Shown piece after piece: positions 16,457-36,995 of a stretch of 64,000 nucleotides of DNA. The DNA is from Escherichia phage phAPEC8. Location: sequence record NC_020079.1; one strand, given 5' to 3'. Numbering within the stretch: position 1 is the first letter of the stretch; every line of letters starts with the position of its first letter. Under the pieces are notes generated by a model. It saw nothing but the letters and a program-made list of their open reading frames with translations, made no database searches and was not told the DNA's origin. A program made the translations under genes and the position numbers.

Positions 16457-16929
16457 TGGCAGATTTAACTACGATCAAAATTTCTGATCTTACACAAACA
16501 ACCTCTGTGTCTGATACAGATTTCTTTGTAACAGATCAGGCTGGAATAACAAAGAAAACTTCTTTGAAAGTGCTGTTGAGTGGTGCAGGGGTAACTAGAA
16601 ACCGTTTAAATGCACGTGGAACAGTAACTAGCACCTTGGCATTAGATATTAGTTCAGCAGAATATTTTTCGGCAACTTTATCTTCTGCAACATGCACAAT
16701 TAGTTTTACTAATATTCCAGTAGCAACAAATGCAGTTTTAAACTTTACTTTAGCTTTGCGTCAAGGAAGTGGTGCAAATAAAGTTGTATGGCCTTCTTCT
16801 GTAAAATGGAGTTTTGGTCGTTCCCCAGTTTTGAGTTATCGTCAAGGTGCAACAGACACTTTTGAGTTTATCAGTTATGATAATGGTGCAACTTGGACAG
16901 GTAGCTTAGTTTTAGCAGGAGTTATTTAA
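16456..16929 (+). CDS. hypothetical baseplate protein
   Basis: 157-aa ORF; start overlaps the preceding stop (ATGG junction). Confidence 0.45.
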   Translation: MADLTTIKISDLTQTTSVSDTDFFVTDQAGITKKTSLKVLLSGAGVTRNRLNARGTVTSTLALDISSAEYFSATLSSATCTISFTNIPVATNAVLNFTLALRQGSGANKVVWPSSVKWSFGRSPVLSYRQGATDTFEFISYDNGATWTGSLVLAGVI

Positions 16930-19805
16930 TGTCAAGAGTTAAGCACAATATTGACAACACGTTTCAGTTGATTGAAGGGTTGGTTCAGTTTTTGGAAAGA
17001 AATACTGGGCTTACCATAGATCCTACGGTTCAGCATTACATTATCAACCCACAAAACGTATTGGCGAACAACAGACACTTTATTAACTGGACAGCGCAGG
17101 AAGGGCAACCAAACGGTGACGCTACTACCGAAGGTCAATCTGTGCTTATCACTGGTTTTGCCTATGCATATTTGGCTACAGGGGATAAAAAATATCTTGA
17201 ATCTGCCGAGAAGTATTGGCAAGCCTATATAGATCACTTCTTCGGGGGCCAACCTATTCCTGATCCTCCGGCTAAATATCGTCCCAACTGGATCATCAAT
17301 GGTAAAGAACCACGTTTAGCACATTACCCTCTCACAGATGATGGGTATCCTACGCACGGTGGGTTCAAAGGTAGCATGATGACTTGGATTAACGGAAGGA
17401 CTGTTATTCCTAAAGGTGCACCGCATTGGGGGGAATACTTAGATAAAGCTTGGTTTGCTTTCAATGGCAATCTTGGTTGGAACTCCGTTAACGCAACAGT
17501 TTATGCAACTAACCCAGATGGTTCAACCAACTGGAAAGAATATGGAGATCAGTGGGACGTTGAATGGATTATAGACCGTCTAGGACGTAAAGTTGATTGG
17601 GATGGTAACATTTTATCTACTGGTCATAGCTTTGCAGAATATGGAACAGTACAACTTAAAAATGCTTCTGTGAACGGGGACTATAAATTCAACTACGCTA
17701 CATGCAATCCTGTAGAACACGGTGGATATCTGCTTAAGCGTAATGAGATGTGGCATAACCGTCCTGTAAACGTTCCGGTAGAGTTAGGCTATCAAGATAA
17801 TGCTTCCGATGCTGAAACGTGGTGGTGTGATGCAAACTACTTGATGTATCAGATCACAGGAGAGAGAAAATACTGGCTTTGCTGGCAATCTTCTTTATTG
17901 TTGTGTCAAGACTACTCAAACATCGATATGTTTGATAAATTCTTCCGTAGATCTACGACAGCAATAATTCCTTTTACAGATGGTATCTCGTATGATTACT
18001 CATACCCATCTACAGCAATACCTAAATATTCTCGTGACGAATTAGGATACACAGTAATTCGCCAAGATGTTTCAGCACAAACAACTCTAGAACAACAGGC
18101 AGTTTGGTTCAGAGTAGATCAGAATTCAAAACTGCGTATTGAGTTTCAAGGTGTAGATGATGCAGGGGAAGGTGTTCTTTTCCGTCCAGAGCTAGAATTA
18201 AGCAAAACTAAGAGTGAAACAGACACAGTGACATATCGTTGTGGCTTACCTCTTGGTGCAGCTAATATGACTAAGATGGATATACCTTTATCTAGTTTTA
18301 TGCGCACCGAACCTCCTGGAGGTGGTGTATATATTATTGCTGAACCTAGAATTATTGTTGACTGGGGAAGCAATACTGTGATACAATATAAATATGCAAC
18401 TGGTATTGCTGGGACAAATAGTGATCAGATAGTTTCTGCTAATATGGATTCAGATGGTGGTTTTACTGTTGGGTTTTGGTTAACACCAACTAAAACAGCC
18501 AATTTAAAATCTATTACGTATCGTTCATACGCAGATGATTTTAACATCACTATTACGGATTCCGCAGGTTGGAGATGGTGGGCCATGTTAGAAAAAACAA
18601 ATTCTGCATGGGTTACTAAAGCTTTAAGTCCTGCTGATTTCAAATTAAGCACTTGGCAACCCAATCATAACGACACAGAGACAAAACCTTCGTCAATAAA
18701 CCTGACTGCTGTTGATCAGATCAACATTGCATTGGATTCTGAACCTGCAAATGGCTTGACAGGGGCAATCGATTTTTATTGTGTTAACGATATCCCATCT
18801 TTGTATTCTTCAGCCGCTGGTGATGATTACACAATGTATTTCAGGGTTACAGTTTCATCTGAAAATCCTTATACAGCAAAACTTGGAGATTGTACAATAC
18901 TGGACTATAAACTTGACAGTTTGAATTATACTCCAGGAATCATTCCATTTTCCAATATTAGTGATCCTAACACAGCATTATATGACGGTTGGCGTGGTAT
19001 TCCTTACCCAGGTTATCAATACCCATCCTTATATTGTTTTAAAGGGAGAGATATTGACTGGGTTCGTATGAACAACAGTATAGACTTTTTATATGATTCA
19101 CAAATGTGGTTTTATAATAAGTTTGCCCCTGTGATGCCTGGGCCAATGGCACAAGCTTATGTTTGGGATCGTTGGGATGCTCATAAATACGGAAACAAGA
19201 ATGAGTTCACAATGTATCATTGGAACGATAAAGCTTGGGATGGTTATGAAGCACGAGCATTCTTCTGTGCGTGTCATACAGTATACGAACTGAAGCAACG
19301 AGGAGCAGAAGTTCCTGAAAAACTTTTAACAGTTTGTAAAAACTGGATCAATTATCTGAAGTGGTTCCAGGATAACAACGAAGGAAGAACACCAACAATA
19401 TTTTATCCCAACGGAGAAGTGGCTGCGCCTGTAGATGACTTTACAAGTCACATGTCTGCGCTCTTTATGGCGGGATGTGCTATAATGGGGATGGCTGGAT
19501 ATGATTCAGAAATTCCTAACATTAAAATAGTAGCAGATCGCTGTTTTGAACTTATTCAGGAAAATTATATTGTTCTTGGTCCTAATCACGTTATGAATGG
19601 TTGTTGGAGTGCTGCTCCTAGACCAGACAGTGATAACGGAGTCTTCTTTGGCTTCCACGCCGGAGAGTTGTTACGTGGTTTTGGGTTGTATGCCTTATAC
19701 AAAAAACTTAATCCCCAAAATGCATTACCTGTTTTGGATTCGAGCAATATTCCTGCACTTACTGTTTTGACAATGGCAAACATTAGTGTGGACGTTACCG
19801 AGTAA
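16929..19805 (+). CDS. large tail-associated protein, possible glycan-degrading receptor-binding protein
   Basis: 958 aa; Trp/Tyr-rich segments (ITGFAYAYLATGDKKYLESAEKYWQAY, WWCDANYLMYQITGERKYW) reminiscent of alpha/alpha-barrel glycoside hydrolases; first of three consecutive large tail genes. Confidence 0.35.
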   Translation: MSRVKHNIDNTFQLIEGLVQFLERNTGLTIDPTVQHYIINPQNVLANNRHFINWTAQEGQPNGDATTEGQSVLITGFAYAYLATGDKKYLESAEKYWQAYIDHFFGGQPIPDPPAKYRPNWIINGKEPRLAHYPLTDDGYPTHGGFKGSMMTWINGRTVIPKGAPHWGEYLDKAWFAFNGNLGWNSVNATVYATNPDGSTNWKEYGDQWDVEWIIDRLGRKVDWDGNILSTGHSFAEYGTVQLKNASVNGDYKFNYATCNPVEHGGYLLKRNEMWHNRPVNVPVELGYQDNASDAETWWCDANYLMYQITGERKYWLCWQSSLLLCQDYSNIDMFDKFFRRSTTAIIPFTDGISYDYSYPSTAIPKYSRDELGYTVIRQDVSAQTTLEQQAVWFRVDQNSKLRIEFQGVDDAGEGVLFRPELELSKTKSETDTVTYRCGLPLGAANMTKMDIPLSSFMRTEPPGGGVYIIAEPRIIVDWGSNTVIQYKYATGIAGTNSDQIVSANMDSDGGFTVGFWLTPTKTANLKSITYRSYADDFNITITDSAGWRWWAMLEKTNSAWVTKALSPADFKLSTWQPNHNDTETKPSSINLTAVDQINIALDSEPANGLTGAIDFYCVNDIPSLYSSAAGDDYTMYFRVTVSSENPYTAKLGDCTILDYKLDSLNYTPGIIPFSNISDPNTALYDGWRGIPYPGYQYPSLYCFKGRDIDWVRMNNSIDFLYDSQMWFYNKFAPVMPGPMAQAYVWDRWDAHKYGNKNEFTMYHWNDKAWDGYEARAFFCACHTVYELKQRGAEVPEKLLTVCKNWINYLKWFQDNNEGRTPTIFYPNGEVAAPVDDFTSHMSALFMAGCAIMGMAGYDSEIPNIKIVADRCFELIQENYIVLGPNHVMNGCWSAAPRPDSDNGVFFGFHAGELLRGFGLYALYKKLNPQNALPVLDSSNIPALTVLTMANISVDVTE

Positions 19806-19813: not shown

Positions 19814-21967
19814 ATGAAACAAGCTATATTTACTGTCACGCGAGACAAGAGAGTAAATGCGAGTTCATTTAACTACACGACTGTTGATGGAACAGCAGTC
19901 GCTGGTAGAGATTATATTGCAAAATCGGGAACACTTGTGTTCCCTGATGATGCTGATTCTGCTACCATTGTGGTTGAAGTATTTGAACGACCAAAGAACT
20001 CAATAGATCTTAACTTCTCCCTCCAAGTTTCAGGGATTAGTCAAAATAATATGATGGTTGAAACAACCATCAATTGTATTATAACTACTATCCAAGAAAA
20101 TACTACTCCAATAACTTGGACTACAAAAGACGTTAAAATGTTCTCTCCTATGTATTGGACAATAGATTCTCAAGCAACGGAAAGTTGTTCTATTGTATCT
20201 CATGGAGACTCTTTTACTGCAAGATTTGTAAACAGAACAACAGCAGGTTTGGCAGGGGTTATCTGGAGCACAGTTGACAAATATGACCATAAAGGTGTTG
20301 GGTATTTACCCCACACAGATTTAAGTTCAGAGAAACTTTGGTTTAAAATGGAAATTAGTCAAAACATGCCAGGTTTTAAAGAAGAACCTTTGGTGCCGAC
20401 TTTGACTGTAACTCTCCTGGATAAAAGTGTTCATTATGTCAGTTTAGGATTCTACGCTTCAGATATTTCAGAAGATGGTAAAACAGCTACAATCAAGTTA
20501 GATTTTGGTAATATCTTTTCTGGCCCTAATAATGATATTCCTTTGGATATGAGTGCTGTAGATAATATTTTCTTCTCTTTGATTACAGCAAGGTATGAAG
20601 AAATAGAAGAGGTTGTACCTATTGACAGTCAAGAGGCTTGGTTTACTTTCACTCTTCTTGAACCTACTTCTGGTTACAGTATGATGAAAGTCAGCAACCT
20701 TGTCCAGCCTGAACATGATATTCGCATGTGCACATCTTATGATGATATGTATAACCTGACTCCAGAGAGAGTTATTTATAATACATATGCACTAGGTTAT
20801 CGTGGGATGATTAACCATTATAACGGAATGTCTCACTATTATGAGTTCTCATGGAATGGAACATCTTGGGCTTTAAATAAATCTGTTTTCCTGAATCCGG
20901 CTACAGAAGCTTGGCTTAACAGCTTTCATTCTATAGCAAACGAGAAGGGCTACACAATAATGAACTCTTTAAGTTTTGAATTGATGAGCACAGTTTGTCC
21001 TGTAGAATGGGTCCAGCATGATTGGAACGATGCTCTTGCAGCAACAGGGTATAAACCTCCTAGTTATGTGTTGTCTCCAACTATTGACGAAGGTATGGAA
21101 TATTTGCAAAATGTTATTAATAAAATAGCATCTATTTCTCAAGCTAACAATATTCCAGTCGTCATTCAAATTGGTGAACCTTGGTGGTGGTATAATACAG
21201 CAAGTAAAATGCCTTGCATATATGATTACACTACCAAACTGGCATTCAACACAGAAACAGGTTTATTTGCACAAGATGCAGGAACAATAGATAATTATAA
21301 AACAGGAACGCCGTTTGACGAATACTATGCATTTTTGTCTCGTAAACTAGGATTAAGAGTTACAAAGTTTGCAACAGATCCCAGAGCAACTTACCCAGGA
21401 GCCAAGGTAACATTGCTTCCGTTCTTGCCATCAATTATCGGCAACGGTTTGATGGAGAAAGTTAACTTTCCGTCTGATTACTACATTCCTGAAACTTTTG
21501 ATTTTTACTGTTCAGAGTGTTACGACTGGCTTCTGGAAGGTAAAATGATGAAAGCATTCGATGCAATTACCATACCACATGAAAAATTAGGTTTTGAATA
21601 TTCTGATATTCACTATCTTTCGGGTTTTGTTCCAGATGCTACTCTTGCACCTTTGTATGGCTTCGATCCTGAATCAAACTACCGAACGTATCTTTGGAAA
21701 ATGATTATAGGCAATATAGTATTGAACGCCAACAAGTTTGACGGACTTACACAATATATATGGGCCTATCCTCAAATAATGCACGATTCCATCACGGTAG
21801 TTAATTCTCAATCTCAAGTTTTCTATATGGGTAACGTGCCTTTGAACGTTTATTTACAGGATATCACTCTTAAACAGGTAAATGTTGAGATTGCCACCAT
21901 AAGTGGAATTACATTAGCCACTAAATCTGGAGAAGATTTGGTAACAACACAAAAATTTTATATATAG
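19814..21967 (+). CDS. tail fibre/spike protein with N-terminal Calx-beta-like segment (putative)
   Basis: 717 aa; N-terminus TTVDGTAVAGRDYIAKSGTLVFPDDADSATIVVEVFERP resembles a Calx-beta motif; lies within the receptor-binding gene block. Confidence 0.35.
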   Translation: MKQAIFTVTRDKRVNASSFNYTTVDGTAVAGRDYIAKSGTLVFPDDADSATIVVEVFERPKNSIDLNFSLQVSGISQNNMMVETTINCIITTIQENTTPITWTTKDVKMFSPMYWTIDSQATESCSIVSHGDSFTARFVNRTTAGLAGVIWSTVDKYDHKGVGYLPHTDLSSEKLWFKMEISQNMPGFKEEPLVPTLTVTLLDKSVHYVSLGFYASDISEDGKTATIKLDFGNIFSGPNNDIPLDMSAVDNIFFSLITARYEEIEEVVPIDSQEAWFTFTLLEPTSGYSMMKVSNLVQPEHDIRMCTSYDDMYNLTPERVIYNTYALGYRGMINHYNGMSHYYEFSWNGTSWALNKSVFLNPATEAWLNSFHSIANEKGYTIMNSLSFELMSTVCPVEWVQHDWNDALAATGYKPPSYVLSPTIDEGMEYLQNVINKIASISQANNIPVVIQIGEPWWWYNTASKMPCIYDYTTKLAFNTETGLFAQDAGTIDNYKTGTPFDEYYAFLSRKLGLRVTKFATDPRATYPGAKVTLLPFLPSIIGNGLMEKVNFPSDYYIPETFDFYCSECYDWLLEGKMMKAFDAITIPHEKLGFEYSDIHYLSGFVPDATLAPLYGFDPESNYRTYLWKMIIGNIVLNANKFDGLTQYIWAYPQIMHDSITVVNSQSQVFYMGNVPLNVYLQDITLKQVNVEIATISGITLATKSGEDLVTTQKFYI

Positions 21968-21975: not shown

Positions 21976-24741
21976 ATGTCAACTACAATTACTAATTTAC
22001 CCGAAACATCAAAAGTTAATGGTTCTGATTACCTGGTTTTAGATCAACCTGATAAGACTGTTAAAAGCACAGTTTCCAACTTTCTTACTGACACTGGGGT
22101 GGTTTTAGCCACCCAGCTAAAAGATACTTCTGGAGCTACCAAGTATCCAGAACTTCAAATGTCACGTTGGAGAGATGAAGGTGATCCTAGAGGATGGGGA
22201 GCAGTAGGTGACGGAGCAACAGACGATACTAATGCCATAACACAGCTTCTTGCTGCTATGCCTGATGGATGGATTGTTGATGGGCGTAATCTCACTTTCA
22301 AGGTTACAACACTACCAGATATAAGCAAGTTTAAAAACGCTGCTTTTGTTTACGAGCGTATTGTTGGACAACCCCTTACTTACGTATCTGAGGGTTTCTT
22401 TGATGGAAATCTGACAAAAATTACGGATACACCATTTTACAATGCTTGGACGCAAGATAAGACGTTTGTTTATGACAATGTTATATATGCACCATTTATG
22501 GCTGGCGAACGTCATGGTGTACAAAACCTCCATGTAGCGTGGGTTAAATCAGGAGATGATGGACAAACTTGGTCTATGCCAGAATGGTTAACTCCAATTC
22601 ATCCTGATTATAATGCCTCTTCAGCAAACAAAGTTAACTATCATTGTATGAGTATGGGTGTATGTGGTAATCGCTTATATGCGGTGATCGAAACCCGTTA
22701 CTTATCTAACATGCGATTGAAGAAAGCAGAACTTTGGTCACGTCCAATGCCTTATTATAGAAGGCCAACTGGAGGCATAACAATTAGTTCTGGGTCTACT
22801 ACAGCGACAATTGTTTTAGAAAAGCATGGTCTTAAAGTTGGAGATGCTGTTAACTTTTCCAATTCAGGTGCAACTGGCGTATCTGGAAATATGACTGTTG
22901 CATCTGTAATTAACAAGGATACATTTACTGTTACATTAGCGAGTGCTGCCACATCTAATATAGATAATACAGGAACTACTTGGCATTTTGGAACACGTTT
23001 CTGGGATAGCCCTTGGGAAATTACAGAATTACCAGATGTTGCCTATTCTACTAATGCAGATTTATGTGTTACAGAAACCCATAGTTTTACAGTTATAGAT
23101 GATGATAATTACACTTTTGCTGTTGGTTATCACAATGGTGATGTTTCCCCAAGAAGATTAGGTATTTTGTATTTCAATAATGCTTACTCTGACCCAAGTT
23201 CTTTTACTCGTAGAACAATTAGTCAAGAATATGCTGACAATGCAGCAGAACCCTGCATTAAATATTATGATGGAATTTTATATTTAACTACCAGGGGTAC
23301 TTCAACTTCTGCTGCTGGTTCTACATTAGCAATGAGTACCGACCTTGGAGAAAACTGGAACTACTTAAGATTCCCTAACAACGTTCATCATACAAACTTA
23401 CCATTTGCAAAAGTTGGTAACTACCTTTATATCTTTGGTACAGAACGTTCATTCGGAGAATGGGAAGGAGAAGAACTAGATAATAGATATAAAGGCACGT
23501 ATCCTCGAACGTTTATGTGCAAGATTAATGTATCTTCATGGCCTACATCTTTATCCGATGTTCAATGGTTTAATATCACTGATCAGATGTATCAAGGGCA
23601 TATTGTTAATTCTGCATGTGGTGTTGGTTCGGTATGTGTTAAAGATGGTTGGTTATATTATATCTTTGGAGGCGAAGATTTCTTATCTCCTTGGTCTATT
23701 GGGGATAATAGTAAAAAATTATGGTACAAGCATGATGGTCATCCAGCCGATTTATATAGTTATAGACTAAAGATTACCGAACATGATTTTGTATCACGTG
23801 ATTTCAAATATGGAGCTACGCCAAACCGTACATTGCCTGTATCTATGGGTACAGATGGGGTAAGGCATGTCTCAGCCCCTGTAACTTTTGATAATGATGT
23901 ACAAGTATACTCTTTAACAGTTACTGGCCTTGAGCATGATGGGACACAACAATCTGCCGTTAGAATAAAATTAGATGGTGATTATGGGGTTGTTGCAAAA
24001 AATGTCCCAATAAAAAATCCTTCTAAACAGCGACTAATCCTATGTGGAGGAGAAACTCCTTACGTTACTGATGGATCGCTATTACAACTATATGGTTCAA
24101 ACCATACGTATCCAAACAGAGCAGTTTTATATGCCCCAGGAGGAGCATATACCCAAAATAATTTCATGCCGTATTTAGATGGACAAGTTGCATTAGGCGG
24201 TGCGTCTAACAGATGGTCAGAAGTGTACGCATCTACAGGAACCATTAATACTTCAGATGGAACATTAAAAACTAAACCTACAGAGATTGAAGATATTTTA
24301 CTGAAAGCATGGGAAGATATTCATGTAATCTCTTACCAATGGCTTAGTGCTGTCGCGGAGAAAGGAGATTCTGCGCGTATTCATTTTGGTGTTATAGCTC
24401 AAGATGTAAGAGATATTCTGATTAATTATGGCTTAATGGATGAAAATAGCACTGATTGTAAGTATGCTTTTCTGTGTTATGATGAATACCCTGCTATGTA
24501 CGATAGTGTTGTTACGGGACAAAAAGAAATCCCTTTATTTGATGATGAAGGGAATGTTGTAATTGATGAAGAAGGTAATCCAGTAACAATCGTAGAAGAT
24601 GTTGTAGAAACTATCGAAATAATTCCAGCAGGATCGCGATGGGGTATCCGCGCTGACCAAATGTTTTTTATTGAGATGGCTTATCAACGTAAAAAGTTAA
24701 AAGCTCTTGAAGAAAGACTTGCAACCCTGGAAAGTAAATAA
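21976..24741 (+). CDS. endosialidase-like tailspike with C-terminal intramolecular chaperone (peptidase S74-type)
   Basis: 921 aa; WGAVGDGATDDTNAIT motif, Asp-box repeats (SGDDGQTW, STDLGENW), and a C-terminus (HFGVIAQDV...SRWGIRADQMFFIEMAYQRKKLKALEERLATLESK) typical of the self-cleaving chaperone domain of endosialidases and L-shaped fibres. Confidence 0.6.
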   Translation: MSTTITNLPETSKVNGSDYLVLDQPDKTVKSTVSNFLTDTGVVLATQLKDTSGATKYPELQMSRWRDEGDPRGWGAVGDGATDDTNAITQLLAAMPDGWIVDGRNLTFKVTTLPDISKFKNAAFVYERIVGQPLTYVSEGFFDGNLTKITDTPFYNAWTQDKTFVYDNVIYAPFMAGERHGVQNLHVAWVKSGDDGQTWSMPEWLTPIHPDYNASSANKVNYHCMSMGVCGNRLYAVIETRYLSNMRLKKAELWSRPMPYYRRPTGGITISSGSTTATIVLEKHGLKVGDAVNFSNSGATGVSGNMTVASVINKDTFTVTLASAATSNIDNTGTTWHFGTRFWDSPWEITELPDVAYSTNADLCVTETHSFTVIDDDNYTFAVGYHNGDVSPRRLGILYFNNAYSDPSSFTRRTISQEYADNAAEPCIKYYDGILYLTTRGTSTSAAGSTLAMSTDLGENWNYLRFPNNVHHTNLPFAKVGNYLYIFGTERSFGEWEGEELDNRYKGTYPRTFMCKINVSSWPTSLSDVQWFNITDQMYQGHIVNSACGVGSVCVKDGWLYYIFGGEDFLSPWSIGDNSKKLWYKHDGHPADLYSYRLKITEHDFVSRDFKYGATPNRTLPVSMGTDGVRHVSAPVTFDNDVQVYSLTVTGLEHDGTQQSAVRIKLDGDYGVVAKNVPIKNPSKQRLILCGGETPYVTDGSLLQLYGSNHTYPNRAVLYAPGGAYTQNNFMPYLDGQVALGGASNRWSEVYASTGTINTSDGTLKTKPTEIEDILLKAWEDIHVISYQWLSAVAEKGDSARIHFGVIAQDVRDILINYGLMDENSTDCKYAFLCYDEYPAMYDSVVTGQKEIPLFDDEGNVVIDEEGNPVTIVEDVVETIEIIPAGSRWGIRADQMFFIEMAYQRKKLKALEERLATLESK

Positions 24742-24789: not shown

Positions 24790-25053
24790 ATGGCTAAAGA
24801 GAAAAATGGTTTTAAAAAATTTATTCGCGGAATGTTCTGCACTTACCCCGGCAACGGGGTAAGCTCTACGAAAGTCTGGAACGCTGTAGGCATGTCTGTT
24901 ATGACAGGCATGTTTATCTTTTTAGGAATAGAAAAAGAAATTCCTGAATGGATGGGCTGGGCTTTTGTTTTCATGATAACCCCTTCTCGCCTCATGAAAA
25001 ATCTTATTGATTTACGTTGGGGCAGATCACAATCTACCAAAGAGGATGACTAA
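24790..25053 (+). CDS. small two-TM membrane protein (holin-like topology)
   Basis: 87 aa; two hydrophobic helices (VWNAVGMSVMTGMFIFLGI, WMGWAFVFMITP) and a charged C-terminus; embedded between tailspike and baseplate genes. Confidence 0.4.
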   Translation: MAKEKNGFKKFIRGMFCTYPGNGVSSTKVWNAVGMSVMTGMFIFLGIEKEIPEWMGWAFVFMITPSRLMKNLIDLRWGRSQSTKEDD

Positions 25054-27181: not shown

Positions 27182-28243
27182 ATGGCGAAGCCAATATATT
27201 ATCCTGACTGGGCTACACAAACTGTAACGCTCCCAGGAACTTTAAACACAAACAAAATTAGACCTAAAGAAACCATCCGCACAATTGGTATGGATTATGG
27301 TCAAATCATGACTTGCGAAGAGATGAACTGGATTCTTAATAATATCGGTTTATGGATTCGCTATTTGGTGGATGATTTTCTTCCAACTTTACCTAATACC
27401 TACTTGCCTTTAGTGGGAACTAAGATTACAATGGCAGGTGATGCTACTGGTGAGGCCACTTGGAACGGTAACAAAGAAGTTACTTTATCTATCCAAGTTC
27501 AAGATAACAGTCATAATCACTTGTCAGCAAACATTACAGATGCTACTAGTTCAACAGTAACACCAAACGTGTTGGTAAAACGTGATGCGGGTGGTGCTAT
27601 TTATGGTGGCGATGTTTATGTTAACGGTACTTCCACAACAGATCCTGCAACACTGTTCTTCAAAAACTTTGCAGGACAAACAAATGGTGAGATTTCTGCC
27701 GAGTATCAAAGCGGAGGTCAGCTTTACATCTATCGTAGAAATCCTAGCACAGGTAGTGTATCGGCAGGTGTTCGTTTATATGATGCAGGTTATGTTCTAA
27801 TAGATAATCCAAGATCGAACAGTGGACAAGATACTTCTAACGGAAATGCTTTAGTTCGTTTAGATTATCTGAACTCTCGTTTGACTTCCCTTCAGAACAC
27901 ATTGCAGACGAATATTAACACTGTTCAAAACAACTTGAATAATGTTAACAACAACCTCTCTTCTCGTATAAACAATGTAGAAAGTAATCATCAAAGTCAG
28001 ATTACAAATAACTACAACTATGCTAACGGAACCTTTGTAAGAGATATTCGTTATACTAGCCAAGGTGTGTATTATCCACCAGGGAACGAGGTTTCTTGGA
28101 CTTATATCTGTTCTTCTGGTTATGTTCTTTCTGGTATTATCGTACAGGAAACAGGACGTAGCTCTGCGGATAACATCGGTGGGGTTTACTTCAAACGCCT
28201 CCAGCGCAACGTTAACGGAAACTGGTACGATATTGGAGGCTAA
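27182..28243 (+). CDS. tail fibre protein (short)
   Basis: 353 aa; Asn/Ser/Thr-rich central region with heptad-like NNLNNVNNNLSSRINNVESN stretch; immediately followed by a tail-fibre-assembly gene. Confidence 0.5.
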   Translation: MAKPIYYPDWATQTVTLPGTLNTNKIRPKETIRTIGMDYGQIMTCEEMNWILNNIGLWIRYLVDDFLPTLPNTYLPLVGTKITMAGDATGEATWNGNKEVTLSIQVQDNSHNHLSANITDATSSTVTPNVLVKRDAGGAIYGGDVYVNGTSTTDPATLFFKNFAGQTNGEISAEYQSGGQLYIYRRNPSTGSVSAGVRLYDAGYVLIDNPRSNSGQDTSNGNALVRLDYLNSRLTSLQNTLQTNINTVQNNLNNVNNNLSSRINNVESNHQSQITNNYNYANGTFVRDIRYTSQGVYYPPGNEVSWTYICSSGYVLSGIIVQETGRSSADNIGGVYFKRLQRNVNGNWYDIGG

Positions 28244-28789
28244 ATGATATTTACAAACTTTAAAAAATATATTCCTGAAGACCCTGAACTAAAAGAATTG
28301 GTAGAAGCAGAGAACATTCTTTTTCTTCGTTGCGATCAAGGTTACGACTGGTATGATTTACGTAGCACAGAATTCAATAACGATAAAATGAAAGTCGTTT
28401 TTGATGATCAAAATCGTATTGTGTTTTGGAATACTGATCCTACACTACTTTGCCCTGAAGATCTTTCTATAGCACAAGTAGATTTTAATATAGATACTTT
28501 TGAGGATATTAGGAACAAGGTTCTGGATTTAGAAACCTTAACTCTTAAGGATAAAGAGTATTCCCGTGAAGAGTTGATGACACAAGCTAGTGCAAAAATT
28601 CGCTCTTTACAAGAAACAGCGGTAGCACTTATAACACCTTTACAGTATGCTAAAGATTTAGAAATGGCTACTGAAGACGAATTAGCTTATCTTAAAAATC
28701 TTCAAGTTTATGTAGTTAAACTAAATCGTGTTCCGCTTCAAAAAGACTATCCTTACGCTATAGATTGGCCTACATTACCGACAGAATAA
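28244..28789 (+). CDS. tail fibre assembly protein (Tfa/gpG-like)
   Basis: 181 aa; C-terminus AYLKNLQVYVVKLNRVPLQKDYPYAIDWPTLPTE matches the conserved Tfa ending (W..YR..LNRVD...P.I.WP..P). Confidence 0.6.
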   Translation: MIFTNFKKYIPEDPELKELVEAENILFLRCDQGYDWYDLRSTEFNNDKMKVVFDDQNRIVFWNTDPTLLCPEDLSIAQVDFNIDTFEDIRNKVLDLETLTLKDKEYSREELMTQASAKIRSLQETAVALITPLQYAKDLEMATEDELAYLKNLQVYVVKLNRVPLQKDYPYAIDWPTLPTE

Positions 28790-28798: not shown

Positions 28799-29134
28799 AT
28801 GGAATTTCAAGAAGCATGGGGACTTGCAAAGGATGCAATAATCCCTTTAATCGGAGTCATCTGGTTCTTTTTCAAACAAAAAATGGATAAATTCGGCTCT
28901 GATCTTGAGGAAATGGAGGAGAAAAGTCGAGAGCTAGAGAAGAAGTTGGTCTTTGTTGAATCAACTTACGCAACTAAAGCCGAACTTACCCAGATGCTAA
29001 ATCAAATTAACTCTACATTAATGGCAAATAACAACACCCTTGAGCAAAAAATTGAAAAGATTATGGACCTCAAGAATGCGACTATCCAAATGATGCTAGA
29101 TGACATAGTTAAACGTACACAGAATAAGGGGTAA
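28799..29134 (+). CDS. small protein with N-terminal TM helix and coiled coil
   Basis: 111 aa; hydrophobic IIPLIGVIWFFF followed by charged helical region; function unknown. Confidence 0.4.
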   Translation: MEFQEAWGLAKDAIIPLIGVIWFFFKQKMDKFGSDLEEMEEKSRELEKKLVFVESTYATKAELTQMLNQINSTLMANNNTLEQKIEKIMDLKNATIQMMLDDIVKRTQNKG

Positions 29135-29137: not shown

Positions 29138-32100
29138 ATGGCAACATTCCCAACATATCCAGCAACGTCTCTCGAACAGGGCGTAGACCTGGTTATTTTC
29201 TCATCTAACCAACTCCATGATGTTATTAATGGAAGTGCTACAGAGAGTATTGAAACAGAATCAGGGTTGATACCAACCCTGAGAAAAGCCCTTGTTGACA
29301 ACTTTTTCTTTAAAAGTCCATTAGATTGGGCGCAAGGCACAAACGAAACAGTTTTTAACCAACTTCGTTATTTCCAGAACGGGGTGTTGAGTGGTTATTA
29401 CTATGCGCCTAACGCTACACTGGTAAACCCAATTCCTATGCAAGGGACTCCAGTAGGAGATAACAACTGGGTATTGTGGGGACTGAAGACAGAACAACTA
29501 GCAACAGAAGTCACCCCTTGGGTATATTCTGGTGCAACTGGTTATGAAACAGTAATCAGTCCTCCCTACATCTTTGATAGTGCTATTGTTACGATCAATG
29601 GTGTTATTCAGGTTCTGGGAGAAGCTTTCCGCATAGAAGATAGTAAAATCATCTTATCTGAACCTTTGGGACACGATCCTGCAACAGGACTGCCAAACAA
29701 ACTTTTTGCCTATATTGGTAAAATCGTAGCTTCCGCAGATACAGATCCTAACTTAGAAAACCGTCTTGTCAGTTTAGAAACAAAAACTGAAGAACTGACA
29801 GAAAGCATGGATAAAGTACCTTTACAAACTATTGCTCGTAAATACGGTTTGTTGGATGATGAAGTAGCTTACGCAACAGCGGGTCAATCGTTAACAGGGA
29901 TTAAAGCTCTGTATGATCCAGTAGCACAATCTTCCTACACATTGCCTCCTAACATCACAGGGACTTTAACATCCTTGTCTGTTTCTGGAGTAATGACTTA
30001 TTCTGGCGGATCTGTAGATCTTTCTGCATTGGCTGTTGAACGTGGACAGTTTGTTCATTTGCCTACAAGCTTTGGTAATAACGTAACTCTGACAGCTAAA
30101 AATCAGACGATTGGACGTGGTGCTGGTCGTTATCGTTGGGCTGGGAGTTTACCAAAAAGTATTTTGGCCTCAGATACATTGGAGACAAGCGGTGGATTAG
30201 GTCCAAATGCATGGGTTCTGACCAATACAGAAGGACTGTTAACCCCTCGTGGTGGAACATACAACGATTTATTCGATGTTGTCTACTTATCAGAATTTGC
30301 TAACAACACAACAACATATACCACACCAGAAGCAGCTTTCCAAGCGGCACTGTTAGCAGCAAAAGCTTCGAAAAGCAAGATTCTCGATGCTTACGGTTGC
30401 GATATGACTTTCACGACAAGCTCTTTTGATATTCAAGGTATCACTTTGCGTGGGGGTGTGTTCCGTGGTCAACGCGACTATCGTGTGCAAAATGCTACAG
30501 TAGAAGGCACAACTTTCCGTAACTCTCGTGTTATGTATTGGGGTGGTGCTGTGCGCATGTTCGATTGTTTGTGGGACGGTGCTCCTCGCGCAGGTCAAGT
30601 TGGTAGCTTGGTATTCCAAGGCAACCCAATATCAGGTACTTTTGAAATTGATAACTGTACTTTTAAAAACGGGTTGTATGGCATCCTTCAACAAGGAACA
30701 GGGGAACCAGTAACACGTGGTGTCTTCCGTAACCTTACCTTCATGGACATGCAAGGTGATGCAATAGAACTGAACGTCATCAATAAACATTATGACGATG
30801 GTTGTGTGATTGAGAATATTTACCTGTCTAATATCGATGGGACTAACGCTCCTATTCCTCTGTCCAACTGGGGTATCGGTATCGGTGTAGCTGGTAAAGG
30901 ACCATATGGTTACGGAATCCCTGATGATCAATATTGCAAGAATATTACAATTCGTAACGTTTTTGCAAAACGTTGTCGTCAGATTGTCCACGTAGAAGTT
31001 GGTCGTAATATCTCTATCGAAAACATTCATGGCGATCCAGACCAGACCGTATCTGTTGGGACAGGTTTGGCAACTGGCGCAGTTGTAATGTATGGAAGTA
31101 AAGATTTTACGATTGACGGTGTTTACGGAGAGCCTAAAACAGACGGTAGCACACTTGCAAGTAATATCCGTATGATTTATTTGGAGTGGGGAACTAACGC
31201 AGTTCTGGACGAAGAGGGTAATCCGGTAGTTCCGGCACAGGGTAGACCTTCAAACCCATGCTTTAACTATTCTGTTCGTAATATTCACACCAAAACTGGG
31301 CGTGTTTTTGCAGGAGTTTCCGCTGGGCCAGGTTATGAAAACAGAGTTAGCTTTGAAAATATTCGTTGCGCTGCATTGCAGTTATTCGGTATAGCTTCTT
31401 GGCTTTCAATGTCTAACATCACCTGTAATATCTTCGATTGTGTTGGTCAACCTGAATCTGGTCCAGGGACATTTTATGATGGATTCTTCCGTAGAGAAAA
31501 ATCTGTTCTTGAAATGGTTAACGTGAACTGTTACCCAGATGGCAAGACGATGGTTACTGGTCGTCCACAGTGGAGCCGTTGCCGTTACTCGGATATTCAT
31601 CGTGTCAATTGTAATGTTGAAGCTAATATGTATACCAATATCGCAGGTGGTATTGGAGCTATTGTAGGGACAACGGGCAAAGTTTATTACTTAGAGCCTA
31701 ATCCTAGTCGAAACATTGATGGAATGCATTTCCCAACAGGGAAAGAGTTTGACAAAGGTGATATGATAGTCAAGGCGGATAATACGTTCTTCCTTGTAAC
31801 AACAAGTGGGGCATATATTCCAGATATCCCAGCTTTCGGTATTCGAGCTACACAGGCAGGAGATACCTTCCTGACACAGAACTTGACTCCTAACGGGACA
31901 GCAACAAATGCTTCTTGGTTGTATCATTACCCTCTGTCAGCAGGGACACGTATCCGTATTCCTGGCGCTGGTGTAGGTGGAGCAGATTTGGACACAGTTA
32001 TTACTCGTGCACCTTATCAAGATAATGATACGTGGACTAACCCAGTTAAAATAGACATTGCAGATCCAATTGTAACGCCTACAAGTGCTGGAGTTAGAAT

Positions 32101-32191
32101 TAAAACCATACCTAATGATTCCAGTAATGTTTCTGTAGGTAATACTGCGGTTATTCGCCCAACGCCAGTAGTAGATGTGCCAACAACCTAA
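29138..32191 (+). CDS. tailspike protein with right-handed beta-helix (pectate-lyase-like) domain
   Basis: 1017 aa; repeated beta-helix rungs (NCTFKNGLYGILQQG..., NLTFMDMQGDAIELNV..., NITIRNVFAKRC..., NISIENIHGD...) typical of polysaccharide depolymerase tailspikes. Confidence 0.6.
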   Translation: MATFPTYPATSLEQGVDLVIFSSNQLHDVINGSATESIETESGLIPTLRKALVDNFFFKSPLDWAQGTNETVFNQLRYFQNGVLSGYYYAPNATLVNPIPMQGTPVGDNNWVLWGLKTEQLATEVTPWVYSGATGYETVISPPYIFDSAIVTINGVIQVLGEAFRIEDSKIILSEPLGHDPATGLPNKLFAYIGKIVASADTDPNLENRLVSLETKTEELTESMDKVPLQTIARKYGLLDDEVAYATAGQSLTGIKALYDPVAQSSYTLPPNITGTLTSLSVSGVMTYSGGSVDLSALAVERGQFVHLPTSFGNNVTLTAKNQTIGRGAGRYRWAGSLPKSILASDTLETSGGLGPNAWVLTNTEGLLTPRGGTYNDLFDVVYLSEFANNTTTYTTPEAAFQAALLAAKASKSKILDAYGCDMTFTTSSFDIQGITLRGGVFRGQRDYRVQNATVEGTTFRNSRVMYWGGAVRMFDCLWDGAPRAGQVGSLVFQGNPISGTFEIDNCTFKNGLYGILQQGTGEPVTRGVFRNLTFMDMQGDAIELNVINKHYDDGCVIENIYLSNIDGTNAPIPLSNWGIGIGVAGKGPYGYGIPDDQYCKNITIRNVFAKRCRQIVHVEVGRNISIENIHGDPDQTVSVGTGLATGAVVMYGSKDFTIDGVYGEPKTDGSTLASNIRMIYLEWGTNAVLDEEGNPVVPAQGRPSNPCFNYSVRNIHTKTGRVFAGVSAGPGYENRVSFENIRCAALQLFGIASWLSMSNITCNIFDCVGQPESGPGTFYDGFFRREKSVLEMVNVNCYPDGKTMVTGRPQWSRCRYSDIHRVNCNVEANMYTNIAGGIGAIVGTTGKVYYLEPNPSRNIDGMHFPTGKEFDKGDMIVKADNTFFLVTTSGAYIPDIPAFGIRATQAGDTFLTQNLTPNGTATNASWLYHYPLSAGTRIRIPGAGVGGADLDTVITRAPYQDNDTWTNPVKIDIADPIVTPTSAGVRIKTIPNDSSNVSVGNTAVIRPTPVVDVPTT

Positions 32192-32197
32192 TGGAAT

Positions 32198-32217
32198 AGA
32201 GGGGGGATTCCCCCTCT
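32198..32217 (+). terminator. stem-loop after tailspike gene (probable terminator)
   Basis: 8-bp stem AGAGGGGG/CCCCCTCT with GATT loop; downstream tract pyrimidine-rich but not a clean U-run. Confidence 0.4.
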
Positions 32218-32253
32218 TCTTCCAATAGAATGGTCTAATGATAGGAGAGATAA

Positions 32254-34278
32254 ATGAATTTAACAAGACCTAATAGTGCGATAGCCGATCTGGTAGAAGC
32301 TACTTATCGAAAACGTCGCAGCTTTGAGGCAGGTTTTACATTACGTAATTCCCGTGAAGTTTTGCTGTTAGCAGCAGAAGGGAATTATTACCAATGGAAA
32401 GGAACTTTTCCTAAAGTTGTTCCAGCAAACTCTACGCCAGCCACCACAGGTGGTATTTCTTCCCTTGCATGGCAAAGTGTTGGGACCGCTGATGATATAG
32501 CAATTATCAATGCCAAGTTTACGGCAATGCAGCAACAGATTGATGATCTGTCGGAAACAATACCTGAAGCTGGTAAATCGGCTTATCAGATCGCACTTGA
32601 TAATGGTTTTGTTGGAACAGAAGCACAATGGCTTGCTTCTTTGAAAGGGGATACTGGTGCTCAACTTAATATTAAAGGATCATTAGCAAGCACTAGTGAA
32701 CTACCATCCACAGGTAACGTTGCAGGGGATGGTTATATCGTAGGTGATGTAATCTACGCTTGGGATGGTTCTGTTTGGAAACTTATTTCTTCTCTTGGGC
32801 CAGAAGGTAAATCAGCTTACGAGGTATGGTTGGCAGATGGTAATACAGGATCTGTTTATGATTTTCTTACCTCTATAAAAGGTGATAAAGGTGATGTTGG
32901 TCCTACAGGGCCACAGGGAGCACCTGGTGTTAACGCCAACGGTTTTGATTATCGTGGGGATTTGCCTTCTACAAGTAACTTACCACAACCTAACTCTGAA
33001 AACGTAAGCCAAGCTTATTCTATCAATGGTAATCTTTATGTCTCTAATGGGACAGCTTGGGTCAACATGGGTAATATTGTTGGTCCTCAAGGTCCACAAG
33101 GTGAGGCAGGTAAAGACGGTCTTGATGGAACAGATGGAGATGAAGGGAAATCTGCATATCAAAGTTGGCTGGATGCTGGTAATGAAGGGACAGAAGTAGA
33201 TTTTATTGCCTCACTTAAAGGTCCAAAAGGAGACAAGGGTGATCAAGGAGAGCGAGGTCCACAAGGTGAACTAGGTCCACAAGGACCAGTGGGTGCAACA
33301 GGATCAGGCTTAGAGATTATCGGGGTTCTGAACAGTGAAGCTGAACTTCCTCCTACTGGAGAAGTAGGTGATGCATATAAAATTAATAATGATTTGTATG
33401 TTTGGATTCAAGATGCTACGGAATGGATGAATGTTGGCAGTCTTGGAGGAACATCAATTACAGCTAAAGGTCATGTTCCGAACAGTGAAGCTCTCCCTGT
33501 TTATAATAACTATGGCGATGCCTACTTAACTGAAGACACCAGTAATCTTTACATCTATACCTACGATCAAGACACCAATTCCGCATCTTTTGTTGACATG
33601 GGAAGTATTAAAGGCGACAAAGGTGAAAAAGGGGATAAAGGGGATAAGGGTGATCCTGGAACAAATGGAACCAACGGTACTGATGGGACCAACGGTAAGG
33701 ACGGCGCACAGTGGTTTGTAGCAACAACTAATCCAGTCGCAGGAGACGGTGTTATCAATGATTACGCCTTCAATACTACCACTGGAGCAGTGTTTAAGAA
33801 AACAGATTCTTCTACGTGGACACTTATAGGAACTCTTCCTAGTATACCAGAAGCCCCTCAAGACGGCTTGACGTATGGTCGTTCTGATGGAAACTGGATC
33901 GAAATATCAGGATCAGATCCTACAGAAGCTATAACACCAACTAGAGTTACAGCAGGTTTCATGGAACTTGAAACAACTACTGCCAACTCTGGAGCATCTT
34001 GGACTCCTTCTGGAACTTCCAATATGTATGTTGTTACAGTAACTGATGCTCTGACAGTTGGAGCATGGCCTGGTGTCACTGGCTCTACAAAACCTAAAGC
34101 GTTTTCAGCAATGATTTATTTGATTCAAGATACAACGGGACACACGGTTACACTAGATGCGTCTTATGGAGCACTAAATGATACAGAAATAGCAACTACT
34201 GCTAACGCAGTAACAATTTTGCAATTAACGTATCCTGGTGTGGGTGATATCGTGGACATGGTTGTTGTAACACGATAA
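32254..34278 (+). CDS. collagen-like tail fibre protein with phage-fibre repeats
   Basis: 674 aa; three copies of K-SAY-x-(A/W)L-x-GFVGTE/GNTGS...(A/T)SLKG motif and several Gly-X-Y runs (GDKGEKGDKGDKGDPGTNGTNGTDGTNGKDG). Confidence 0.65.
   Translation: MNLTRPNSAIADLVEATYRKRRSFEAGFTLRNSREVLLLAAEGNYYQWKGTFPKVVPANSTPATTGGISSLAWQSVGTADDIAIINAKFTAMQQQIDDLSETIPEAGKSAYQIALDNGFVGTEAQWLASLKGDTGAQLNIKGSLASTSELPSTGNVAGDGYIVGDVIYAWDGSVWKLISSLGPEGKSAYEVWLADGNTGSVYDFLTSIKGDKGDVGPTGPQGAPGVNANGFDYRGDLPSTSNLPQPNSENVSQAYSINGNLYVSNGTAWVNMGNIVGPQGPQGEAGKDGLDGTDGDEGKSAYQSWLDAGNEGTEVDFIASLKGPKGDKGDQGERGPQGELGPQGPVGATGSGLEIIGVLNSEAELPPTGEVGDAYKINNDLYVWIQDATEWMNVGSLGGTSITAKGHVPNSEALPVYNNYGDAYLTEDTSNLYIYTYDQDTNSASFVDMGSIKGDKGEKGDKGDKGDPGTNGTNGTDGTNGKDGAQWFVATTNPVAGDGVINDYAFNTTTGAVFKKTDSSTWTLIGTLPSIPEAPQDGLTYGRSDGNWIEISGSDPTEAITPTRVTAGFMELETTTANSGASWTPSGTSNMYVVTVTDALTVGAWPGVTGSTKPKAFSAMIYLIQDTTGHTVTLDASYGALNDTEIATTANAVTILQLTYPGVGDIVDMVVVTR
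33613..33706 (+). repeat. collagen-like Gly-X-Y coding repeat tract
   Basis: Triplet-periodic GGN-NNN-NNN repeats encoding GDKGEKGDKGDKGDPGTNGTNGTDGTNGKDG within the fibre gene. Confidence 0.6.
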
Positions 34279-34281
34279 CAG

Positions 34282-34306
34282 AAGCCCCGAAAGGGGCTTT
34301 CTTTTT
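34282..34306 (+). terminator. rho-independent terminator after collagen-like fibre gene
   Basis: Stem AAGCCCC/GGGGCTT with GAAA loop followed by TCTTTTT. Confidence 0.6.
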
Positions 34307-34319
34307 ATGGAGGGTTTAA

Positions 34320-36995
34320 ATGTTTCCAATTCCAATATTTACTATTATGACCAGCACTGGTGTCGTTCCTCTGCCAGCAGGTATTGTTAAAAAAGTAATC
34401 ACTTTAGATTACCCAGATAATGCTGGTAATTCTAACAGCAGTTTAGCAATTTTGCTTAATGATGGTAGATTGTTTACTCAAGGCGCAAACCTTTTTGGTG
34501 AGATTGCAGATGGAACTCGTAGTGCACGATTCAATAATTTCCACTTAGCTTCTACTGTAGTAGCGGATGTGTTTACCGCAGATCGTTGTTTTGTTATTAA
34601 AACTAACAGTGGGGGATGGCAATATTCAGGATTGACAGCAGGATTGGTAGGATCTATAGCAGCAGGTGGTACGGACGCATGTGTAACTACTTGGACCAGC
34701 TTTCCATCTGTAATAACAGGGACTATCTCTTTAGCCAATCTTAAAGAGGTTAAGGGAGGATATAACAACACTCTCTGGTTAATGAATAGTGGTGTTCTTT
34801 ACGGATCTGGTCAAAACACAGTAGGCAGTTTAGGTGCAAGTACTACTAACGAAGTTTCTACTCCTCGTCAGATAACAAGTGCAGCAGTTGCTTTTGATGC
34901 AGGTTACAACCAATGCTCTTATGTCAACAATGTGGGAACCTTGCGTGTTTGTGGAGCTAGTAAAGGTTTAGCAGGTAATAATAACACAACAACAGCTTTT
35001 GTCAATGCCAAGATATCCGCTACTGAAACAGTGTATGTCAAAGATTACATCAATACAGTTTCCCAGACAATAGTTGTAGGAGATACCTCCGGTGGCACGG
35101 GTGCAGTAAACTACTTATATGTTAGATCTAATACAGAAACAACCTACACTAAACTGGATACCTTTGCAGCAGGTTTCTCAACATGGAAATTTCCACCAAG
35201 CCGCCACTCTTTTTTCGTTGGGATCAATAATTCCTTGTGGGCTATTGGTAAGAACTACACTGCAAACTTAGGTTTGGGGTATGATTCTGCGAGCGGAGAT
35301 CCACTTCAAGTGGGAAAACCAGTTAAACCTGAAGGAGTGGGTTCCTGGGATATAAACAAGCTCACAAGCGTTCATACGCTGAATATGGATGTTACTAACC
35401 AATTAGGTTATCAAGGAACCTTTTTCGTTTATAATGGAGATATGTATTATTCCGGTATTTGGAAAGATGGAAAAGCCTCGTATCTGTTCAATAGTGGTCT
35501 AAACTATAATAAATTCACACCAATAGCAAGCTCCGTGATTACGGGTGATATTCTGGCAACTGGCTTAACTACGGATTCTTTAGGAATTTGTATTGTAGGT
35601 GGAACTAAACAGTTGACACATTCTGTTAGCCCAGAAGGAGGTAAACTTTTCAATATTAAATATACTTCTTCTGCCCCTGCAAACATGACAATATCGTCTA
35701 CTGGTTTAATGACTTTCCATGCAGAAGGTGGTTTTGATGCAGGTATGACAGCCTTAAACGCTGAAGGAACAACTTTATCAGATACCTCTGGAGGATATGC
35801 TTCAACATTGAGTGTTTACACCCCTAGCTTATCTGCGATGGATGTAGGAACAACACAAACAATGGTAGCAGAAATAACGCCAACAGGAGCAGCAAGCTTA
35901 CCTGGCATGGTTGTTGAGTATTTCTCTAATGACCCTACGGTAGCAACAGTTGACCCCGTTACAGGCGTTATTACAGCGGTTGCTGATGGAGGTTGTCGTA
36001 TCGGTTGTAGAGCAACTTATCAAGGTGTGGTAACTGCCGAAGATAGTTCTTATCTCACAGTGAATGCTGTGGTGATTGTGATGGATTATGATTTGACGCA
36101 AGAAACTATTCCGGCGGATGTAAAGGTCAACAGGAGTAACCGTTATGCCAGGGCTTCTGGAGATATCCTTGTACCTACAGAGAGTTCTGCTCCCGTAGCA
36201 CCTTTAGAATATGTTGGTACAACTCCACAAGGTAGACGTGTTGTAGCAGCCAACCGTACACATATCTTTATCAACAATAACTTGACAACAGCTTCCCCGT
36301 GGTTGAAGACGAACTTGACAGTCACAGCATCAACAATCAACTCTCCGGTTGGAACTACGGCTAACACTTACAAGTTAACACCTTCTACAACTTCAGGACA
36401 ACATATTTTATCAGCAGTGAATACAGCTTCTGATATTACAGCAGGTAAGCACTGGGCGGCATCCGTATTCTTGAAGCCAGATGGGATCACTAAAGTGAAA
36501 CTCAAATTGACTTCAGGAGATGAGATTAACGAAGGGACTTATGATCTTGTAGCTGGAACATTTACAGGTGCAGATGCAAACATAATCGATATGGGGAATG
36601 GTTGGTATCGTGTAATTCTACACAAAGTGACAGTTGCCAAACAAGCATCTATAACCTATGAGATTATAGCTTTGAATGCAAGTGGATCAGACACTTTCGC
36701 AGGAGATGGTACGGCAGGTCTTATTGCTTGGGTTCCACAGCTTGAGATGGGGGATATGACAAATCCAGTTTGGGCGGGGACACCATTTGTTTGTTCTTAT
36801 GCACGAGACACTACCAGTGCTGTTACCTTCACTATTCCTAAGAATGGACATACTGGCGTGGACATTTACCACACTGATGGTACTGTGCAACGAGAGGTCT
36901 TCACTGGTACAGCTACAACTTGGATGTTGACGTTCACCGCCGCAAGTGCGGATTGGGGATCGAAGTTCATTACAGGTTTGAAATATTACGACTAA
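34320..36995 (+). CDS. tail fibre/adhesin protein with Ig-like (Big_2-type) domain
   Basis: 891 aa; segment VVEYFSNDPTVATVDPVTGVITAVADGGCRIGCRATYQGVVTAEDSSYLTVNAVV resembles a bacterial Ig-like group 2 domain; last gene of the plus-strand arm. Confidence 0.5.
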   Translation: MFPIPIFTIMTSTGVVPLPAGIVKKVITLDYPDNAGNSNSSLAILLNDGRLFTQGANLFGEIADGTRSARFNNFHLASTVVADVFTADRCFVIKTNSGGWQYSGLTAGLVGSIAAGGTDACVTTWTSFPSVITGTISLANLKEVKGGYNNTLWLMNSGVLYGSGQNTVGSLGASTTNEVSTPRQITSAAVAFDAGYNQCSYVNNVGTLRVCGASKGLAGNNNTTTAFVNAKISATETVYVKDYINTVSQTIVVGDTSGGTGAVNYLYVRSNTETTYTKLDTFAAGFSTWKFPPSRHSFFVGINNSLWAIGKNYTANLGLGYDSASGDPLQVGKPVKPEGVGSWDINKLTSVHTLNMDVTNQLGYQGTFFVYNGDMYYSGIWKDGKASYLFNSGLNYNKFTPIASSVITGDILATGLTTDSLGICIVGGTKQLTHSVSPEGGKLFNIKYTSSAPANMTISSTGLMTFHAEGGFDAGMTALNAEGTTLSDTSGGYASTLSVYTPSLSAMDVGTTQTMVAEITPTGAASLPGMVVEYFSNDPTVATVDPVTGVITAVADGGCRIGCRATYQGVVTAEDSSYLTVNAVVIVMDYDLTQETIPADVKVNRSNRYARASGDILVPTESSAPVAPLEYVGTTPQGRRVVAANRTHIFINNNLTTASPWLKTNLTVTASTINSPVGTTANTYKLTPSTTSGQHILSAVNTASDITAGKHWAASVFLKPDGITKVKLKLTSGDEINEGTYDLVAGTFTGADANIIDMGNGWYRVILHKVTVAKQASITYEIIALNASGSDTFAGDGTAGLIAWVPQLEMGDMTNPVWAGTPFVCSYARDTTSAVTFTIPKNGHTGVDIYHTDGTVQREVFTGTATTWMLTFTAASADWGSKFITGLKYYD

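Follow-up and report, generated by a model that had tools for sequence, protein, structure and literature searches.

A phi92-like host-adsorption locus with several predicted spikes and fibres in Escherichia phage phAPEC8

Introduction

Phage phi92, of the genus Justusliebigvirus (subfamily Stephanstirmvirinae), has been described as a "nanosized Swiss army knife" that carries five or more distinct receptor-binding proteins (Schwarzer et al., 2012, as cited in PMC5380687 and PMC8594841). Published work indicates that Phapecoctavirus and phi92-like phages share the loci concerned, that the phages of Phapecoctavirus combine four sets of fibres and two spikes with very broad host ranges, and that AV125, equipped with four fibre sets and two spikes, has the broadest host range in its collection. 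Six "tail fibre" genes have been listed, including those for proteins of 958, 891 and 353 amino acids (aa), the 891-aa protein being absent from Justusliebigvirus. The gp143 slot has been described as variable, the endosialidase of ESCO5 and REC as 96% identical to phi92 endoN, and phage PNJ1809-36 as needing the K1 capsule as well as lipopolysaccharide (LPS). Infection by phage N4, by Vequintavirinae and by phi92-like phages requires wecB and nfrB, which implicates the N4 glycan receptor (NGR) rather than enterobacterial common antigen (PMC8669472). Here we compare with these systems a region of about 20 kb (16929–36995) within a 64,000-nucleotide stretch of Escherichia phage phAPEC8 (NC_020079.1), referred to in its full length as the window. 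Very probably, the region is a Phapecoctavirus module for the baseplate periphery and host adsorption, with several different receptor-binding or glycan-modifying proteins placed on one baseplate.

Results

An initial annotation of the window had listed six large open reading frames (ORFs) of 958, 717, 921, 1017, 674 and 891 aa, here named ORFs A, B, C, I, J and K, together with a 353-aa fibre and its 181-aa chaperone. An ORF scan recovered all eight with the same boundaries, each on the + strand, and every one of them matches a PHROG tail family (E from 1e-108 to 0). At 39% GC, base composition gives about 6.5% stop codons per codon, and we estimate the probability of a chance ORF of at least 674 codons at about 1e-20; chance ORFs of such length are effectively impossible, and the listed ORFs are therefore real genes. 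Their sizes and order hold as described, but they are not strictly consecutive, since small and wedge genes intervene. ORF C and the short fibre are separated by an 87-aa gene, a Baseplate_J-like gene and a gpI-like gene, and directly before ORF I lies a 111-aa gene. The labels given to the large ORFs (glycosidase-like, endosialidase-like, beta-helix, collagen-like and immunoglobulin (Ig)-like) are upheld by Pfam, PHROG and PDB matches and by structure models.

Megablast of the region against 50,697 phage records returned Escherichia phage vB_EcoM_ASO2A as best match, with 98.3% identity over 100% of the locus, followed by PNJ1809-36 (98.2%) and MirsaeidiM_Esher1 (98.1%). In all three the entire 20 kb is matched, including the endosialidase allele. 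At least 80% of the locus is covered by 52 records, and 59 records fall in the 95–99% identity band. Matches of this kind place the window in Phapecoctavirus, subfamily Stephanstirmvirinae. Within this genus, phAPEC8, ESCO5, REC, PNJ1809-36 and vB_EcoM_ASO2A share gene order and 97–98% nucleotide identity over the locus; ESCO5 and REC differ in having another ORF K tip, and ESCO13-like phages in lacking the endosialidase gene. No single record is identical to the window locus. ORF K is 100% identical to that of vB_EcoM_UP17, yet UP17 covers just 87% of the locus. Because ORF K matches UP17 and the endosialidase allele matches ASO2A, PNJ1809-36 and Esher1, the window appears as a mosaic of known alleles.

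Near-identical loci are also deposited under other host names, e.g. "Acinetobacter phage vB_AbaM_ABPW7" (97.6%) and "Campylobacter phage B15" (94.3% over ORF K bases 1–1751), and records labelled Pseudomonas, Klebsiella and Cronobacter are found among the matches to the locus or to ORF K. A number of such host names are probably mistaken, or stem from E. coli phages carried in the samples.

The rV5/phi92-like organisation suggested in the initial annotation proved right. Gene order is identical to that of phi92 from gp135 to gp151, and gp141–gp151 could be aligned gene for gene. Protein sizes in the window and in phi92 are 958/958, 717/719, 921/918, 495/495, 209/209, 353/326, 181/183 and 111/113 aa, and the homologues of gp141, gp142, gp145–gp147, gp149 and gp151 have 60–87% aa identity.

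ORF C (21976–24741, + strand, 921 aa) contains PF12218, PF12217, PF12195 and PF12219, all far above the Pfam cut-offs and with E values down to 3.6e-213. It covers the N-terminal extension, the beta-propeller with inserted beta-barrel, and the stalk domains of phage endosialidase (endoN, glycoside hydrolase (GH) family GH58), and aligns to the solved phi92 endosialidase (4HIZ) with 1573 bits and 97% identity. Residues aligned to the catalytic triad of endoNF (E581, R596 and R647) are kept as E425, R440 and R491 in an alignment to 3gvl. At the C-terminus, a Peptidase_S74 intramolecular chaperone is found at 760–819 (Pfam), with a match to 3gw6 over 663–921, and is predicted to be of the cleaved-off type. 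Judged by its domains, ORF C is a complete endosialidase tailspike. Because it is almost identical to the characterised phi92 enzyme, it would be expected to cleave the alpha-2,8 (and alpha-2,8/2,9) polysialic acid of the K1/K92 capsule.

The endosialidase gene has 96.3% DNA identity to phi92 gp143 (9765–12521 of the phi92 locus), as opposed to 63–79% for every other gene, which argues for a recent movement between Phapecoctavirus and Justusliebigvirus. The conserved N-terminal anchor of ORF C extends from residue 1 to about residue 54–75. The slot is empty in ESCO13-like phages (4386–6702 of the ESCO13 locus), and the ESCO13 homologue of ORF B, of 687 aa, is alignable to the window protein only over residues 1–683. 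In Ro121c4YLVW the slot (locus 11048–13894) holds a different, 762-aa Tail_spike_N spike, which shares only residues 1–54 with ORF C, and a 102-aa ORF. The full endosialidase gene is present in only 12 records (about 10 phages, as RefSeq duplicates are included); many other Stephanstirmvirinae records among the matches listed share just its first 224–248 bases. Being nearly identical to the phi92 gene and missing or replaced in sister phages, the gene behaves, as read from these alignments, as an exchangeable cassette.

ORF A (16929–19805, + strand, 958 aa), the homologue of phi92 gp141, gave no match in Pfam, glycosidase families included, and no sequence match in the PDB, and was therefore modelled on the basis of 32 aligned homologues. 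The confident model obtained (predicted local distance difference test, pLDDT, 86.5; predicted template modelling score, pTM, 0.82) has a split (alpha/alpha)6 barrel of the GH8/GH76/GH105-like type, with helices at about 8–104, 293–330 and 711–924 and beta-sandwich domains inserted between the helical segments. Four acidic residues, D294, E296, D750 and E913, are invariant in the homologue alignment. ORF A fits no curated GH family by sequence membership; a review table labels phi92 gp141 "glycosidase", in agreement with the modelled fold. The family is conserved over its full length (43–55% identity, about 940 aa) in Pseudomonas, Stenotrophomonas, Psychrosphaera and Spongiibacter contigs, and no modular swapping of N- and C-terminal parts was seen among the homologues compared.

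Two natural fusion proteins bear on the role of ORF A. In P0105 (1557 aa) an ORF A-like part is joined to an ORF B-like part that has 52% identity to ORF B residues 108–675 and is without the Calx-beta domain, and in P0087 (1097 aa) a P2 gpI domain is joined to an ORF A-like part. These fusions suggest that ORF A may be a platform carrying mounted spikes. Further homologues, of about 1620 aa, have a Gly_rich_2 C-terminal domain. Mounting would run from the wedge to ORF A and on to ORF B, and the Calx-beta domain would then be the adaptor. ORF A is probably a baseplate-anchored enzyme or scaffold carrying ORF B.

ORF B (19814–21967, + strand, 717 aa) is the homologue of phi92 gp142 and has the make-up of a Calx-beta/TIM-barrel spike, with a Calx-beta domain at 4–82, NCTSP_N at 107–292 (E 2.9e-16) and a TIM barrel at 299–658 (TIM-barrel_NCTSP, E 3.1e-78), all from Pfam. 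It matches Gp64 of phage N4 (PDB 9lc0_M, E 4.7e-30) and shares with N4 Gp64/Gp65 (9lc0) the TIM-barrel_NCTSP and NCTSP_N domains, i.e. the glycan-deacetylase-like spike type. Published genetics link this type of spike, shared by N4, Vequintavirinae and phi92-like phages, to their wecB/nfrB dependence. Unlike N4 Gp64, ORF B is encoded in a myovirus baseplate locus, starts with a Calx-beta domain and probably has ORF A as its mount. By analogy with N4, ORF B may bind or modify the NGR.

The short tail fibre gene (27182–28243, + strand, 353 aa, phrog_4465) is followed at once by the gene for a Tfa-type assembly chaperone (28244–28789, + strand, 181 aa), which matches Caudo_TAP (PF02413, E 3.2e-13) and phrog_136. 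This is the arrangement of a P2 gpH/Mu GpS-type fibre with its Tfa/GpU. The shaft is 75% identical to that of phi92, whereas the tip, from about residue 268, and the chaperone (24% identity) have diverged jointly from their phi92 counterparts (window 27980–28789 versus 15770–16513 of the phi92 locus). The tip matches the short tail fibre 9cuy in the PDB, and by analogy the short fibre may bind the LPS core as terminal receptor.

ORF I (29138–32191, + strand, 1017 aa, phrog_6117) is assembled from parts of different likeness. Residues 1–215 form a gp150-type anchor with 75% aa identity to phi92 gp150, and residues 226–400 an Ackermannviridae-like tailspike N-terminal module, which matches CBA120-type N-termini (Tail_spike_N). 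The beta-helix at 426–1000 matches the gp150 structure 6e0v (E 1.4e-79), and aa identity to gp150 over 455–1007 is just 33%. With the inserted module, the spike is 213 aa longer than in phi92. From this composition, ORF I is a chimeric tailspike with a beta-helix depolymerase distantly related to the phi92 colanidase gp150. An identity of 33% is too low for specificity to be transferred, and "colanic acid degradation" is thus an inherited annotation.

ORF J (32254–34278, + strand, 674 aa), a collagen-like fibre with 60% aa identity to phi92 gp151, consists of a Tail_spike_N anchor (12–77), repeated fibre motifs, a collagen-like Gly-X-Y run (454–485) and a globular C-terminal tip. The N-terminal module of the tailspike proteins TSP2–4 of CBA120 (Ackermannviridae; Tail_spike_N/TSP) is thus met both in ORF I and in ORF J. 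The branched CBA120 complex, in which such modules dock one spike onto another, carries several depolymerase spikes on one baseplate, as proposed here; it differs in its anchoring proteins and locus organisation, and the ORF I and ORF J modules are candidate docking elements at most.

ORF K (34320–36995, + strand, 891 aa) comprises an RCC1-like beta-propeller at about 20–400, two Ig-like/Big_2 domains at 410–582 and a variable C-terminal beta-sandwich tip at 585–891. In its model (pLDDT 76.6) the linker 584–659 and parts of the tip are of low confidence. The propeller resembles UVR8/RCC1 (Foldseek E 1e-14); whole-chain Foldseek returned the RCC1 propeller only and nothing for the C-terminal tip. 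The C-terminal region resembles in sequence the head-spike fibre of the Rhodobacter capsulatus gene transfer agent (RcGTA; E 5.7e-14). Many relatives match the gene only over bases 1–1751, and alternative C-terminal domains, including DUF285, occur in the family. In ESCO5-like phages the tip (window 36070–36995, aa 585–891) is exchanged, and the tip found in the window recurs, with 91% aa identity, on a 942-aa protein of phi92-like VivaForever (locus 3856–4791) that has a different N-terminus, resembling phi92 gp152. Where the window phage has ORF K, phi92 has the 202-aa Ig-like gp152, which is the counterpart of the Ig-like part only. Phi92 gp153 was considered as a counterpart of the ORF K tip and rejected, as no such tblastn match was obtained. 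This 295-aa protein (22096–22983 of the phi92 locus) is annotated with weak gene-call statistics and lacks a counterpart in the window; it has a sub-threshold, unverified match to SASA (sialate O-acetylesterase; E 0.0079), of note in a phage directed at a sialic-acid capsule.

Protein identity of ORFs A, B, I and J is 96–100% among the five genomes of Phapecoctavirus that were compared, apart from the truncated alignment of ESCO13 ORF B described above. This agrees with the view of the BASEL authors, for whom a large part of the locus is directed at conserved glycans; most of the spike and fibre set is conserved and probably has such targets. The alignments show module exchange only in the endosialidase slot, at the tip of ORF K and at that of the short fibre.

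The remaining genes of the region are small or structural. An 87-aa protein (24790–25053, + strand), homologous to phi92 gp144 and annotated as a membrane protein, has no Pfam match. It is followed by a Baseplate_J-like wedge protein of 495 aa (25053–26540, + strand) and a gpI-like/DUF2612 wedge protein of 209 aa (26543–27172, + strand), both matched in Pfam and PHROG and with 80–87% aa identity to phi92 gp145 and gp146. From these matches, the pair are structural proteins and not receptor binders. The protein of 111 aa (28799–29134, + strand) carries a lipoprotein annotation and is homologous to phi92 gp149.

Upstream, the + strand encodes inner baseplate components identified by Pfam, namely a Dit-like protein (12957–13658) and a Pam3 gp18-like plug (13661–14074), followed by a baseplate hub (14084–15094), a central spike (15094–15828) and two small proteins (15830–16456 and 16456–16929) homologous to phi92 gp139 and gp140. 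Here aa identity to phi92 gp137–gp140 is 73–83%.

GC content over 30000–38000, where ORFs I, J and K are located, is 41–44%, compared with 36–39% elsewhere. A terminator-like hairpin (34281–34300) directly follows ORF J and a strong one (36999–37026) follows ORF K. The raised GC and the hairpins would fit cassettes that were acquired, or are transcribed, separately. Sigma-70-like promoter matches were not enriched (42 observed versus 43.4 expected from shuffles), and no tRNA genes were found in the window. A leftward replication module starts at about 37 kb, at a sign change of the GC skew. Two ORFs overlap at the strand switch (37059–37946), one of 295 aa on the - strand and one of 237 aa on the + strand (37101–37814); the former is named "ssDNA-binding protein" in the ESCO5 RefSeq record and hypothetical elsewhere, and has no significant Pfam match.

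Discussion

The mechanism proposed for this locus draws on homology and on published work on relatives; what was read here are genes, domains, synteny and module exchange. Glycan-directed spikes would bind and clear surface polysaccharides and so allow the virion to reach the outer membrane. ORF C would act on the K1/K92 polysialic acid capsule, ORF I, as a colanidase-related beta-helix depolymerase, on a colanic-acid-like exopolysaccharide, and ORF B, as an N4 Gp64-like TIM-barrel spike, on the NfrB/WecB-dependent N4 glycan receptor. ORF A, a conserved protein with a glycosidase fold, is probably seated on the wedge of the gpI/gpJ type, with ORF B mounted on it, and ORFs J and K may be fibres with globular tips that serve further receptors. 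The short fibre, folded with the help of Tfa, would then bind the LPS core and trigger contraction. Host range may be tuned by exchange of cassettes behind conserved N-terminal anchors, i.e. at the ORF C slot, at the ORF K tip and at the short-fibre tip together with its chaperone. The multi-receptor, capsule-related host range proposed in the initial annotation agrees with published work on phi92, the BASEL phages and Phapecoctavirus. The arsenal is not, as had been thought, unusually large; it is normal for the subfamily and follows the published phi92 design.

Several observations weigh against this interpretation. The presence of the locus proteins in the virion, and their position there, is inferred from their genes. 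According to the argument of the BASEL authors, phages of this kind may in effect be monovalent on any one host. The substrate of ORF I is uncertain, given the low identity of its catalytic part to gp150. ORF K is without a characterised homologue, and the full-length conservation of ORF A across very different hosts is more easily reconciled with a structural or adaptor role than with receptor binding specific to a host. This last point leads to the possibility that part of the arsenal is structural, with ORF A mainly a scaffold or adaptor of non-catalytic fold and perhaps four or five true receptor binders left. Apart from the conservation of the family in varied hosts without modular swapping, the adaptor-like fusions to a P2 gpI domain and to ORF B-like spikes and the lack of a match to a Pfam glycosidase family speak for it, and we regard it as possible, if somewhat doubtful. 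It would not extend to the locus as a whole. Of the six large ORFs, none is a mere structural protein devoid of receptor-binding or enzymatic domains, and a purely structural baseplate role was found to apply to just the wedge genes of 495 aa and 209 aa, which had not been counted among the receptor-binding genes.

A different role may also be considered for ORF K, as a tail or head decoration or an accessory, Hoc-like adhesin with weak, non-essential binding, e.g. to mucus or surface glycans. Its Big_2 Ig-like domains and the likeness of its C-terminus to the RcGTA head-spike fibre would suit such a protein, as would PHROG matches that include "major tail protein" and, in the head category, "structural protein with Ig domain". 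Moreover, phi92 gp152 is annotated with a lambda gpV-like fold, and ORF K is the last gene of the module, flanked by its own terminator-like hairpins. However, among close relatives the C-terminal third is swapped while the N-terminal two-thirds are conserved, and a phi92-like phage has this tip joined to another N-terminus. These are hallmarks of a host-range determinant, although a decoration adhesin could look alike, and we consider the decoration role rather unlikely. There is practically no chance that the large ORFs are artefacts or pseudogenes, arisen at random or decayed, as they are intact, have 98–100% protein identity to orthologues in many independently isolated lytic phages, and all have full-length domain matches.

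One speculative extension concerns the family of ORF A, which might constitute an uncharacterised and widespread baseplate enzyme-scaffold, in which a split (alpha/alpha)6 glycosidase anchored to a gpI-type wedge is the platform for exchangeable spikes such as ORF B. We put this forward tentatively and would not bet on it. If it is true, the protein would be expected to act on a glycan shared by many Gram-negative envelopes, since ORF A is conserved in phages as far apart as enterobacterial, marine and Pseudomonas ones.

In conclusion, the design of the locus, the variable endosialidase slot and the N4-like spike are already known from phi92, ESCO5/REC, PNJ1809-36 and the BASEL phages, and the window adds another isolate rather than a new principle. 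Phages with multiple spikes are useful in therapy and biocontrol, as a single particle copes with several capsule and surface-glycan types, and for phAPEC8 the locus predicts activity on K1/K92-capsulated E. coli.

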